From a virus (taxonomy: Duplodnaviria > Heunggongvirae > Uroviricota > Caudoviricetes), in the IMG/VR virus record IMGVR_UViG_2718218399_000002: 39,647 bases of DNA; one strand, given 5' to 3'. This document shows, piece after piece, positions 36,001 to 39,000 of the stretch. Position numbers: made by a program. Position 1 is the stretch's first letter; each line of letters opens with the position of its first letter.

Positions 36001-39000
36001 CGTAACTGACAACAAGGGGAAAACGCATGATGTGCTGACCGGAAGTGATGACGGTCGCCACAGCAACACGTCTCTGGCGTGGGGAGCTGGCGTGCAGTTT
36101 AACCCGATCGAATCCGTGGCCATTGATATTGCTTATGAAGGCTCCGGCAGTGGCGACTGGCGCACTGACGGCTTCATCGTGGGTGTCGGCTATAAATTCT
36201 GATTAGCCAGGTAACACAGTGTTATGACAGCCCGCCGGTTCAGGCGGGCTTTTTTGTGGGGTGAATATGGCAGTAAAGATTTCAGGTGTACTGAAAGACG
36301 GCACAGGAAAACCGGTAGAGAACTGCACCATTCAACTGAAAGCCAGACGTAACAGCGCCACGGTGGTGGTGAACACGGTGGCCTCTGAAAATCCGGATGA
36401 AGCCGGTCGTTACAGCATGGACGTTGAGTACGGTCAGTACAGCGTTATTCTGTTGGTGGAAGGGTTCCCGCCGTCACATGCCGGGACCATCACCGTGTAT
36501 GAAGATTCTCAACCGGGGACGCTGAATGATTTTCTCGGTGCCATGTCGGAGGATGACGTCCGGCCGGAGGCACTGCGTCGTTTTGAACTGATGGTGGAAG
36601 AAGCGGCGCGTCACGCTGAGGAGGCGAAGAAGAATGCCGGAGAGGCGGAGACGTCCGCGAGGAATGCCGGCATATCAGCCAGTCAGGCAGAAGAGAGCGC
36701 GGCAAATGCTGACACTTCAGCAGGGGATGCATCGGAGTCAGCCCGGCAGGCGGCAGAAAGTGCAGCCGCTGCAAAGCAGTCAGAGGAGGCGTCCTCGTCC
36801 TCGGCTTCTGCGGCCGCTCAAAAAGCCAGTGAGTCATCACAAAGTGCAGCAGAAGCTGAATTGTCAAGAAAGACGGCAGAAAGTGCAGCCGGTAATGCAG
36901 CCAGGGATGCAACGACCGCAACAGAAAAAGCCCGGGAGTCAGCAGAAAGCGCACAGTCAGCGGAACAAAGCAGGATAGCGGCGGAAGAAGCCGTAAACCG
37001 AATCCCCACCGTGGTGGGACCTCCCGGGCCAAAGGGGGAACCGGGTCCCGCGGGTCCTCAGGGGCCGAAGGGAGATAAAGGAGAGCGTGGCGACACCGGC
37101 CCGGCAGGGGCAACCGGCGAACGGGGACCGGCAGGTGATGCTGGTCCGGCAGGCCCGCAGGGGCCGAAAGGTGACAGGGGAGAGCGGGGAGAGACCGGTC
37201 TGACGGGAAATGCAGGTCCACAGGGTCCAAAGGGAGACACCGGGGCAGCAGGCCCGGCAGGCCCACAGGGACCGAAAGGAGAAACAGGTGCGGCTGGCCC
37301 GGTGGGGGCAACCGGACCTCAGGGACCGAAGGGCGACCCGGGGGAGACACAAATCCGTTTTCGTCTGGGGCCGGCGAGCATTATTGAGACAAACAGCCAT
37401 GGCTGGTTCCCGGGTACAGATGGTGCGCTCATCACCGGACTGACCTTTCTTGCCCCCAAAGATGCCACACGGGTTCAGGTTTTTTTTCAGCATTTGCAGG
37501 TCAGGTTTGGTGACGGGCCGTGGCAGGATGTTAAGGGGCTGGATGAAGTGGGCAGTGATACAGGCAGAACAGGAGAATGACATGAACATATTAAAAAAAA
37601 TTATGCAGCGTCTGTGCGGTTGCGGAAAGCATGATGACTGTGAACACGGGCAGTCGCTTACAGTACAACTGCGACTGGGGCCGGCAGACATCCTGGAGTC
37701 AGATGAGAATGGCATTATTCCGGAGCAGGACGGGGTAATCACGCAGGTGGTGATACTGGATGCAGATAAAAAGCAGATACAGTGTGTGGTAAGACCGCTG
37801 CAAATTCTGCGTGCTGACGGGAGGTGGGAAAATATTGGCGGAATGAAATAGCCGACAGCTTCACAAAACCGGAGTCCGGCTCCGGTTTTTTGTTGGTTAG
37901 ATGTAATCTGACAGATACCTGTATAAATAACCGGTAACTGTCAGGTCAGAGCTAATATAGGTAATTATATTATAATCACGAGCGCTTAGATGTATTAATG
38001 CCATGCTCTGCAAGATGCTGCATCAGACGCTGAGCCACATCAGGCAAAGGTCTTGATTGTTCATTTTGTACTGGCGGCGTTGGCGCAGGCCAGTTAGGTG
38101 CCGGAGGAATATGTTCAGCCATATTCCGGGCTGGTTGAATGCCATGCTCTGCAAGATGCTGCATCAGACGCTGAGCCACATCAGGCAAAGGTCTTGATTG
38201 TTCATTTTGTACTGGCGGCGTTGGCGCAGGCCAGTTAGGTGCCGGAGGAATATGTTCAGCCATATTCCGGGCTGGTTGAATGCCATGCTCTGCAAGATGC
38301 TGCATCAGACGCTGAGCCACATCAGGCAAAGGTCTTGATTGTTCATTTTGTACTGGCGGCGTTGGCGCAGGCCAGTTAGGTGCCGGAGGAATATGTTCAG
38401 CCATATTCCGGCTGGTTGAATGCCATGCTCTGCAAGATGCTGCATCAGACGCTGAGCCACATCAGGCAAAGGTCTTGATTGTTCATTTTGTACTGGCGGC
38501 GTTGGCGCAGGCCAGTTAGGTGCCGGAGGAATATGTTCAGCCATATTCCGGGCTGGTTGAATGCCATGCTCTGCAAGATGCTGCATCAGACGCTGAGCCA
38601 CATCAGGCAAAGGTCTTGATTGTTCATTTTGTACTGGCGGCGTTGGCGCAGGCCAGTTAGGTGCCGGAGGAATATGTTCAGCCATATTCCGGGCTGGTTG
38701 AATGCCATGCTCTGCAAGATGCTGCATCAGACGCTGAGCCACATCAGGCAGAGGTCTTGATTGTTCATTTTGTACTGGCGGTGGTGGCGCAGGCCAGTTA
38801 GGTGCCGGAGGAATATGTTCAGCCATACTCCGGGCTGGTTGAATGCCATGCTCTGCAAGATGCTGCACCAGACGCTGAGCTACATCAGGTAGAGGCCGAT
38901 GTAAAGCGTTTTTTTCTATACTTGACTGAGTATAAGATGTGGGACGTTGAAGTCCTGATTCTGTATAAGAATTTTTTACCTTAAAAATAGTTGTTGCACT

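Follow-up and report, generated by a model that had tools for sequence, protein, structure and literature searches.

Results

The DNA analysed here, hereafter the window (39,647 nucleotides), is the lambda-like prophage Sp4 of Escherichia coli O157:H7 Sakai, named CP-933M in EDL933. Coordinates refer to the window, and features lie on its plus strand unless stated otherwise. Downstream of lom, the side tail fibre gene stf (ECs1123, 36267-37580) appears in the ORF list as a CDS with 100% identity to that of Sakai Sp4; its product has 437 residues in the order PfN-PCoil-collagen-PfC, as assigned by Pfam, and matches phrog_366 (tail fiber). It is followed by ECs1124 (37582-37851), an ORF of 89 amino acids, here called ORF89. 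Between lom and stf, a terminator-like hairpin with a T-run (36229-36250; 8-bp stem with 7 GC pairs) marks the upstream limit of the stf-ORF89 pair; it is a pattern match only, from a consensus scan. The same type of scan and the sequence point to a second, intrinsic terminator-like hairpin with a T-run (37865-37895; 11-bp stem), which would close the late operon, and the effector locus, with tccP2 on the minus strand, comes after it. The two genes are the standard two-gene distal module of EHEC lambdoid phage side tail fibres.

The length of the fibre protein, Stf, is counted from the RefSeq ATG, and an alternative GTG start lies at 36261. Its N-terminal collar, the attachment domain (36267-36545), is almost identical to residues 1-93 of gpStf of Ur-lambda (phmmer against PDB chain 9e7m_Ta, E=1.6e-54), and in the cryo-EM structure of Ur-lambda this domain docks on the tail tip (PMC12617516). 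PfN (PF08400) matches residues 3-135 at 230 bits, against a cut-off of 26.6. The PCoil stalk (residues 96-250, 36552-37016) had been described as rich in Ala, Ser and Glu in the original prediction, and these residues do make up 61% of it. About 37 uninterrupted Gly-X-Y triplets were also predicted; a direct count gives exactly 37 without a break (residues 251-361, 37017-37349), with Pro at the X position in 18 of them, and Pfam Collagen (PF01391) scores 65.9 bits. The PfC domain (residues 363-426, 37353-37544) matches the full PF06820 model (positions 1-64 of 64; 126.4 bits, cut-off 25). A 13-residue tail closes the fibre, with L425-D426 inside the PfC span and the other 11 residues past it.

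Stf therefore has the features of EPclA-type proteins, namely PfN, an Ala/Ser-rich PCoil, a single uninterrupted collagen domain and a C-terminal PfC, and there is no material difference between its fibre architecture and that of EPclA (ECs2717 and paralogues). Ghosh et al. (2012) reported that EPclA has paralogues of more than 90% identity, and that recombinant EPclA is a dumbbell-shaped trimer in which the stalk is a coiled coil and the collagen helix and coiled coil have a Tm of 42 C and about 52 C, respectively (PMC3368898). The collagen-type triple helix predicted for Stf had thus already been proven, by CD on the near-identical EPclA (PMC3368898). ECs1123 is named once in that paper, whose Table 2, by the authors' account, comprises all Sakai and EDL933 EPclP sequences (PMC3368898). 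The small downstream ORF is absent from its text, in which "downstream" and "chaperone" occur 0 times (PMC3368898). PfC trimerises by itself and is the trimerisation module of EPclA (PMC3368898); by analogy, the PfC of Stf would have the same role and is presumed to form the distal knob. A sequence search of the PDB returned no homologue of PfC, and with AlphaFold the authors of the 2026 structure paper on phi24B obtained no confident model of the fibre tip either (bioRxiv 10.64898/2026.04.10.717836).

In ORF89, an N-terminal extension of 27 residues (37582-37662) precedes a second PfC domain (residues 28-89, 37663-37848), and phrog_576 matches the protein end to end. PF06820 recognises this domain independently of that in Stf, again over positions 1-64 of 64 (122.7 bits, cut-off 25). 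The paralogy that had been predicted for the two proteins is borne out by the pairwise alignment, as BLASTP aligns Stf 365-427 (numbered from the GTG) with ORF89 residues 28-88 (35% identity, 60% positives; single comparison, E=2e-11). PF06820 is the sole Pfam match of ORF89 at E<=1, and NCBIfam gives none, in agreement with the earlier view that this is not a Tfa-type protein of the lambda kind. RefSeq labels ORF89 a tail fibre C-terminal domain protein. The PfC family is very narrow: an exhaustive profile search yielded 80 representatives, mostly E. coli fragments and chimeras, so that no deep alignment of PfC can be built. An AlphaFold2 monomer model of ORF89, from a six-sequence alignment, is unreliable (pLDDT 49.8, pTM 0.31).

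The extension had been called Cys/His-rich. This is true of the present allele, which carries C12, C14, H17, C20 and H22. Across alleles, near-invariance is limited to C12, C14 and H17, and C14 is itself replaced by His or Tyr in some phages; Arg is frequent in place of C20, and Asn at times takes the place of H22. A conserved zinc site, or any metal site with four ligands, was rejected on account of the substitutions at C20 and H22 and, in some phages, at C12 or C14. A lipoprotein or signal peptide, considered for the L-C-G-C motif, was likewise discarded, given that there is no hydrophobic h-region and that charged residues precede the Cys.

Selection was assessed in 80 IMG/VR loci, which gave 50 full-length copies (1-270 nt) and 36 distinct alleles. 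All 50 full-length copies are intact. In these 36 alleles, the N-terminal part has a pN/pS of 0.26 and the PfC part one of 0.10; with pN 0.013 and pS=0.125 in the PfC part, the constraint is on the ORF89 protein and not on the DNA. ORF89 is a real protein-coding gene under strong purifying selection. The PfC of the fibre varies more, with a pN of 0.075 in its first half and 0.022 in its second, so that at the protein level its variability exceeds that of the ORF89 domain by a factor of about 2-6. The low variability of the ORF89 domain is easier to reconcile with a conserved partner inside the cell than with a surface that contacts the receptor.

The junction of the two genes, GGAGAATGACATG (37572-37584), contains the Shine-Dalgarno (SD) motif GGAG, the stf stop codon TGA (37578-37580), one base, and the ATG of ORF89 at 37582. 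Of 74 loci, 65 share an identical context and all conserve its core, and from this arrangement ORF89 is predicted to be translationally coupled to the fibre gene. A +1 frameshift at the stop codon itself, considered by analogy with RF2 because of the UGA C context, was dismissed: the SD does not lie 3 nt upstream but overlaps the last sense codon, and re-pairing of tRNA-Glu on AAU is not possible. In phi24B, the fibre-tip domain of gp61 goes together with a small ORF, gp59, as in Sp4, gp59 being the ORF89 homologue; unlike Sp4, phi24B is a podovirus whose fibres point back toward the capsid (bioRxiv 10.64898/2026.04.10.717836). Its proteome contains gp59 with 6 peptides (11 PSM) and the fibre gp61 with 92 peptides (2559 PSM), which on a molar basis puts gp59 at roughly 3% of the fibre in virion preparations. 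An ORF89-type protein is therefore expressed and is, in phi24B, at most a trace component of the virion.

The GenBank record of AU6Stx1 annotates a +1 fusion ("atfT"). In this case, ribosomal frameshifting or transcriptional slippage in a polymorphic G/T homopolymer would join fibre residues 1 to about 407, a 31-residue linker and the whole of ORF89, so that a minority of fibres would carry a second PfC tip. In 74 of 80 loci, the frame of ORF89 does run without a stop for 44-46 codons ahead of its ATG, and the window holds the longest tract seen, a T8 inside the fibre PfC coding region (37480-37487) that is the candidate slip site. A slippery sequence and a pseudoknot are annotated in KU977420, the phi24B authors included hypothetical fusions among the sequences of their proteome search and named the resulting group "Spike or just gp59?", and 3% of the fibre level is an amount that low-frequency slippage could give. 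However, the slippery site is not conserved: when the longest run of T in the final 246 nt of stf is scored, the tract is T7-T8 in 36 of the 80 loci and T3-T6 in the other 44, and ORF89 is equally conserved where it is short. The upstream extension in the ORF89 frame shows no coding constraint (pN/pS 1.53, against 1.33 and 1.15 in out-of-frame controls), and the RNA downstream of the tract has no stimulatory structure (MFE -23.3 kcal/mol, shuffle mean -23.5, z=0.08). Moreover, ORF89 has its own well-placed SD and ATG, and the shift would delete the most conserved part of the fibre PfC, its C-terminal hairpin (L-Q-x-R-x-x-D-G-x-W columns). Mondal et al. (2016) did not find a frameshift signal (PMC5155283), and among the phi24B peptides with at least 3 PSM there is no junction or linker peptide. 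The one "fusion-unique" phi24B peptide, with 88 PSM, was examined as a possible junction and set aside, as SVVVSGTLK is the mature N-terminus of the fibre. The fusion has no support from evolution or RNA structure, and we regard it as distinctly unlikely.

In a search of 50,697 sequenced phage genomes, Stf-type PfC and ORF89 were each found in 296 records, with the same organism breakdown, and ORF89 is intact in 293 of the 296. Wherever the upstream gene could be read (74 of 74 loci), a PfC-tipped fibre lies directly upstream of ORF89, in long- and short-tailed phages alike. Stx2-86 has a fibre, gp21, with a Peptidase_S74 tip, followed not by ORF89 but by a Gp38_N adhesin (gp22; PF21721 at 70.6 bits) and cor; gp22 is no paralogue of the tip of its own fibre. 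This joint change of tip and accessory gene indicates that the slot holds an accessory gene cognate to the tip. The copy in C. rodentium was rejected as an independent lineage, since it sits in a decayed prophage remnant and is uninformative.

Sp5, a short-tailed Stx2 phage, carries the 89-aa ORF68 (ECs1229) directly after the PfC-tipped collagen fibre ORF67 (ECs1228), as in Sp4, and the same ACAGGAGAATGACATG junction is visible in a primer of Mondal et al. (PMC5155283), who noted that ORF68 is a phage fibre C-terminus domain (PMC5155283). They built an in-frame deletion of this late gene; the ORF68 mutant belonged neither to the nine essential nor to the two impaired ones, and the gene was classed as non-essential for plaque formation and lysogenisation, while the Sp5 fibre itself is essential (PMC5155283). 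For the infection of K-12 by Sp5, the ORF89 homologue thus counts as dispensable. Sp5 differs from Sp4, a siphovirus, in its podovirus tail and its longer EPclB-type fibre (645 aa), and non-essentiality is known for Sp5 only.

The same authors suggested that ORF68 serves as a recombination reservoir (PMC5155283). In that proposal, ORF89 would be an intragenomic spare tip cassette that is occasionally recombined onto the fibre gene to change its C-terminal domain. Some natural variants are in line with it: a contig found in two samples (L085) has the fibre collagen fused in frame to an ORF89 PfC at a CCGGCAG microhomology and open to the contig edge, which fits the spare-tip idea; another locus (L086) has an extra chimeric ORF, with the N-half of ORF89 and the C-half of the fibre PfC, between fibre and ORF89; and databases hold many chimeric or truncated PfC forms. 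Yet these chimeras are singletons from draft assemblies, and the conserved SD, ATG and N-terminal extension, together with a pN/pS of 0.10, are not expected of a silent cassette. Furthermore, a search of 5.8 billion protein clusters gave 167 relatives, and neither the best 120 of these nor the 80 representatives from the exhaustive HMMER scan include a full-length fibre that ends in an ORF89-type PfC; in those searches, apart from Stf-type tips, all hits have at most 131 aa. With 35% protein identity and only short microhomologies, the paralogues would also be poor substrates for homologous exchange. A reservoir role is, in our estimation, unlikely.

It could also be argued that an ORF89 trimer is a stoichiometric cap or adhesin on every fibre end, the true receptor-binding tip, like gp38 on gp37 of the T2 type. 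ORF89 shares its gene slot with the Gp38_N adhesin of Stx2-86; the C-terminal tail of the fibre and the N-terminal extension of ORF89 could dock; and distant phage fibres (P0142, P0171) have tandem C-terminal PfC halves in one chain, so that stacked PfC-like units are plausible. Nevertheless, the Pfam scan gave no match of ORF89 to Gp38_N (PF21721), and the 11 PSM of gp59 against 2559 for the fibre in phi24B virions, along with the absence of gp59 from the structural proteins given in the main text on that phage (bioRxiv 10.64898/2026.04.10.717836), do not agree with one cap per fibre. The dispensability of ORF68 in a phage whose fibre is essential also speaks against a cap, and the low variability of ORF89 compared with the fibre PfC is the opposite of what a receptor-contacting part should show. 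We consider such a cap highly improbable.

Finally, ORF89 might have nothing to do with fibre biogenesis, being a moron product that acts in the lysogen or a decaying duplicate that hitch-hikes with the fibre and the effector locus. Its position at the border of the exchangeable effector locus, near lom and T3SS effector genes, the dispensability of its homologue in the laboratory and the decayed state of the C. rodentium remnant would be compatible with this. By contrast, neutral decay in E. coli phages is ruled out by the pN/pS of 0.10 and the intact ORF in 293 of 296 genomes. ORF89 has neither a signal peptide nor a hydrophobic segment. It lacks a promoter of its own, is predicted to be coupled to the late fibre gene, and is lost where the fibre has another type of tip. 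An unrelated function is therefore very unlikely.

Discussion

The pairing of fibre and ORF89 is real but not new: the fibre type was on record in the EPclA study of 2012, and the small ORF in its RefSeq name and in Mondal et al. (2016). Our results add purifying selection, coupling, the 296/296 distribution, the lack of support for a frameshift and the trace level in phi24B virions. Regarding function, the literature on the locus tags and "atfT" yielded no functional study of ORF89. Our preferred reading, held tentatively and at somewhat under an even chance, is that ORF89 is a dispensable accessory factor that acts in trans on the fibre tip. It is probably neither a chaperone that the phage requires nor a cap present in stoichiometric amounts, and a programmed fusion is improbable as well. 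The original prediction of a chaperone or adaptor still names the most reasonable class of protein, in view of the slot occupied elsewhere by Tfa or gp38, the strict linkage to PfC fibres and the coupling. The obligatory chaperone and the stoichiometric adaptor within that class are unlikely, given that the Sp5 homologue is non-essential, EPclA trimerises alone and the protein is present in trace amounts in phi24B virions. Recombinant EPclA made in E. coli without the small protein formed correct trimers and a collagen helix (PMC3368898), so that any role of ORF89 in assembly would be auxiliary.

In this reading, the first gene would give a homotrimeric fibre whose collar docks on the tail tip as in Ur-lambda, with a shaft made of the Ala/Ser/Glu coiled coil and the 37-triplet collagen helix, and the fibre PfC would nucleate trimerisation and form the distal knob. 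The second gene would be translated separately through termination-reinitiation coupling. Its product is expected to be cytoplasmic, with a short, helical, Cys-containing extension and a diverged copy of PfC (35% identity). During or after folding, this self-trimerising mimic may bind for a short time to the sticky PfC knob or to the C-terminal tail of the fibre, and could thereby limit mis-association or aggregation, or tune the efficiency of assembly. Recombinant EPclB (rEPclB) expressed alone aggregates heavily via one globular domain, and virions of 933W clump tail to tail (PMC3368898); both observations are compatible with a need for a factor that masks the tip.

A further possibility, which we find doubtful, is that ORF89 represents a new class of accessory factor: a free paralogue of the trimerisation and tip domain of the fibre that, as a self-mimicking cap or chaperone, would mask the sticky PfC knob in trans until or after assembly and would be unrelated to Tfa, gp38, gp57A and intramolecular chaperones. 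The locus resembles the Stf/Tfa region of lambda: in both, the late operon ends with J, lom, stf and a small accessory gene, in this order. The lambda fibre, unlike that of Sp4, lacks collagen and PfC and is T4 gp37-like in its distal part; lambda Tfa belongs to Pfam Caudo_TAP, whereas ORF89 has only PF06820 and is a paralogue of the fibre tip. In the gp37/gp38 pair of T-even phages and gp21/gp22 of Stx2-86, too, a small protein is encoded just after the fibre gene and acts or sits on the tip. T-even gp38 has Gp38_N and ORF89 does not, and ORF89 is a paralogue of its fibre tip while gp22 is not.

ORF89 bears three conflicting public annotations, as an assembly chaperone, a frameshifted alternate tip and a recombination reservoir, and choosing among them would correct how thousands of E. 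coli genomes are annotated. Its role is a tidy, testable question and no surprising discovery; knowledge of its function would also be useful for engineering lambda-type particles with swapped fibres. The 2026 structure paper on phi24B lists the role of the conserved collagen fibre as an open question, and its authors argue that binding to BamA is probably not a task of the fibre tip (bioRxiv 10.64898/2026.04.10.717836). Most Shiga-toxin phages and the many lambdoid prophages of EHEC carry these fibres, which consequently bear on the spread of stx and effector genes.

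Results

Prophage context

The 2.4 kb surrounding the side tail fibre gene stf (36267-37580, plus strand; 437 aa counted from the RefSeq ATG) and the small ORF directly downstream (37582-37851, plus strand; 89 aa) show 100% identity with E. coli O157:H7 genomes and correspond in strain Sakai to prophage Sp4, annotated as a 'lambda-like phage'. The Sakai order is the J host-specificity protein (ECs1121), Lom (ECs1122), the fibre (ECs1123, 'phage tail fiber protein'), the small ORF (ECs1124, 'hypothetical protein'), and then tccP2 and espV, two effector pseudogenes on the strand opposite to the fibre genes. 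Terminator-like hairpins are located just upstream of the fibre gene (36229-36250, plus strand) and just downstream of the small ORF (37865-37889). A third, GC-rich and followed by a T-run, lies on the other side of lom (35554-35573, plus strand); bracketed by hairpins with T-runs, lom would stand apart within the late operon as an insulated cassette, with J before it and stf after it.

In tccP2 (Tir-cytoskeleton coupling protein 2, an EspF-repeat effector; 37976-38889, minus strand), 6.3 tandem copies of a 141-bp unit with 98% identity encode 47-aa proline-rich repeats; it is a pseudogene by Sakai annotation, and in the window the repeat ORF is split over two frames. An espV pseudogene fragment and the right end of Sp4, mapped via the Sakai annotation, occupy about 39325-39606, adjoining tRNA-Ser (serT). 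ARAGORN detected no tRNA over 38800-39647, serT itself lying past the window end. In phage 434B (locus L084, 3192-5225), an NleB-like pseudogene and a gene for an NleC-like T3SS effector come after the same module; phage 434, a classical laboratory lambdoid phage, thus has an EHEC-type effector locus.

Fibre architecture and paralogy

The original prediction described about 37 unbroken Gly-X-Y triplets after an Ala/Ser/Glu-rich stalk, and a direct count gives exactly 37, uninterrupted, at residues 251-361, behind a 155-residue stretch that is 61% Ala+Ser+Glu. The collagen triple helix that it proposed has been demonstrated on EPclA, an expressed paralogue whose PfN-PCoil-Col-PfC architecture the fibre shares. 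Ghosh et al. 2012 found EPclA to be a dumbbell-shaped trimer with a true collagen triple helix in the Gly-X-Y region (Tm 42 °C) and a trimeric coiled coil in the Ala/Ser-rich region; its isolated C-terminal domain, PfC, is a trimerisation module that can renucleate the collagen helix (PMC3368898). The Ur-lambda gpStf collar domain, solved in its docked position on the tail tip (PDB 9e7m; PMC12617516), is nearly the same in sequence as fibre residues 1-93. Besides PfC, Pfam recognises PF08400 (prophage tail fibre N-terminal) and Collagen in the fibre.

The proposed paralogy, for which a pairwise alignment had been suggested, proved significant: BLASTP aligned the last fibre domain and small ORF residues 28-88 (35% identity, E=2e-11), and PF06820 (Phage_fiber_C) matches fibre and small ORF over its whole 64-position model with 126 and 123 bits (cut-off, 25 bits). 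The small ORF does have a Cys/His-rich N-terminus, but one conserved in part only: C12, C14 and H17 hardly vary, with C14 replaced by His in AU6Stx1; C20 is often Arg and H22 sometimes Asn. This cluster is one caveat to an observation otherwise correct in every particular.

Conservation and expression signals of the small ORF

Among 80 IMG/VR loci searched, all 50 full-length copies (nt 1-270) are intact and represent 36 distinct nucleotide alleles; most remaining loci matched over nt 1-269. Pooled pairwise Nei-Gojobori estimates gave pS 0.125, pN 0.013 and pN/pS 0.10 for the PfC part (codons 28-89), and 0.221, 0.057 and 0.26, respectively, for the 27 N-terminal codons. Since synonymous change is abundant, selection acts at the protein level. 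At the junction GGAGAATGACATG, a Shine-Dalgarno stands six bases ahead of the small ORF ATG, and one base separates this ATG from the end of the fibre stop codon. Of 74 loci, 65 share an identical 28-nt context and all 74 keep its core; judged from sequence, this is the classic layout of termination-reinitiation coupling.

Discussion

The fibre belongs to a characterised protein family, and its small paralogue already figures in Pfam, in RefSeq (as 'phage tail fiber C-terminal domain-containing protein') and in a paper from 2016. Mondal et al. placed ORF68, the Sp5 homologue, among non-essential late genes, found no frameshift signal and put ORF68 forward as 'an intragenomic reservoir sequence' (PMC5155283). 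Their supplement gives primers for individual ORF68 deletion, and the deletion mutant is absent from the nine non-infective and two impaired mutants (PMC5155283). GenBank records name the small ORF 'tail fiber assembly chaperone' in phage 434B and, in AU6Stx1, where a +1 frameshift is predicted, 'atfT, alternate tail fiber tip'. The paralogous pair is real, accurately described and already documented, while the function of the small ORF is contested.

A +1 slip in the T8 tract at 37480-37487, inside the fibre PfC, would join both frames, and the small ORF frame is open for 44-46 codons 5' of its ATG in 74 of 80 loci. However, the longest T-run reaches T7-T8 in only 36 of 80 loci (T3-T6 in the remainder), the RNA 3' of the tract is no more stably folded than shuffled sequence (z=0.08), and a slip would cost the fibre PfC its best-conserved hairpin. 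The upstream extension has pN/pS 1.53 in the small ORF frame vs 1.33 and 1.15 in out-of-frame controls, indicating no coding constraint, whereas the same nucleotides in the fibre frame give 0.26. In the phi24B virion proteome (bioRxiv 10.64898/2026.04.10.717836), peptides of the homologue gp59 (e.g. ADGTWENIGGMK and VITQVVILDADKK, 3 PSM each) are common to a fusion and to free gp59 (6 peptides, 11 PSM); the lone 'fusion-unique' peptide (88 PSM) is SVVVSGTLK, from the fibre N-terminus, and of the peptides with 3 PSM or more, none spans the junction or lies in the linker. A fused alternate tip is thus improbable; slippage on the T8 allele may occasionally take place but gives no account of why the small ORF is conserved. 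Across the 80 loci, the G/T homopolymer at this site is polymorphic but keeps its total length (G2T8, G3T7, G4T6, G5T5, or interrupted), and the window's T8 is the longest T-run; it alters residues V/G/F/L/M within the fibre PfC motif VQ(V/G)(F/L/M)FQ.

The small ORF could instead be a spare tip cassette for recombination onto the fibre gene, as two draft contigs carry rearrangements between it and the fibre PfC. In one (L085, 1-291), the fibre collagen, after about 14 triplets, runs directly and in frame into the small ORF PfC through a natural deletion at a CCGGCAG microhomology; in the other, a draft E. coli genome (L086, 2697-2975), an extra 92-aa chimeric ORF between both genes looks like unequal recombination between the paralogues. 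The former fusion is present in two samples, its ORF extending past the contig edge; the latter is built from the first 40 residues of the small ORF and a C-terminal portion of the fibre PfC. Yet the best 120 of 167 relatives from 5.8 billion protein clusters are all 131 aa or shorter, so no full-length fibre with this type of PfC end is among them, and a silent cassette would not retain a Shine-Dalgarno, an ATG and pN/pS 0.10. We consider this role unlikely. Separately, L047 (5044-5139) has a partial second copy of the small ORF 3' end (nt 167-270, 83% identity), located about 1 kb further downstream and flanked there by two nleG effector genes. L042, L050, L077 and L079 have such a copy too, and these copies suggest that effector cassettes were duplicated or inserted along with the small ORF end; L011 has a different fragment (nt 130-261, 89% identity).

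In the phage collection, Stf-type PfC and the small ORF each occur in 296 records with matching organism breakdown, the small ORF at no less than 80% identity in 296/296 and 80% query coverage in 293/296. These include siphoviruses (434, VT1-Sakai, phi330) and short-tailed Stx2 phages with a different fibre N-terminus (VT2-Sakai/Sp5, Min27, phi24B). In contrast, Stx2-86 has a fibre (gp21) with another tip type, a Peptidase_S74 chaperone domain, followed in place of the small ORF by a Gp38_N adhesin-domain protein, not a paralogue of its own fibre, and by cor. As the slot content changes with the tip type, the small ORF behaves as a tip-cognate accessory gene. The family is very narrow: 1.84 billion representatives, scanned exhaustively with HMMER, yielded only 80, and these are almost entirely fragments and chimeras from E. 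coli, E. albertii or C. rodentium. The exceptions are two distant phage fibres, P0142 (565 aa) and P0171 (938 aa), in which a single chain repeats the C-terminal half of PfC, and no other part of it, 4-6 times in tandem. PfC may originate in a widespread beta-hairpin repeat of phage fibres. The repeat motif is ...IQWR/LQVRxxDGxW..., and P0142 additionally has a collagen domain.

This tip-cognate linkage fits the proposed 'tip-associated chaperone or adaptor' in part. Two findings make an obligatory fibre chaperone unlikely: E. coli-expressed EPclA folds and trimerises by itself (PMC3368898), and ORF68 was classed as non-essential in Sp5 (PMC5155283). A stoichiometric distal cap is very improbable: gp59, not mentioned in the phi24B main text, gave 11 PSM vs 2559 for the fibre gp61, roughly 3% molar. 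Moreover, protein-level variability of the small ORF PfC is about 2-6 times below that of the fibre PfC (pN 0.013 vs 0.075 and 0.022 in its first and second halves), the reverse of expectation for a receptor-binding tip. Recombinant EPclB (rEPclB) made alone aggregates heavily via one globular domain, and 933W virions clump tail to tail (PMC3368898). The best-fitting reading, which we hold tentatively, is that the small ORF encodes a dispensable trans-acting factor, a PfC mimic that would associate briefly with the tip of the fibre, either in the course of assembly or afterwards.
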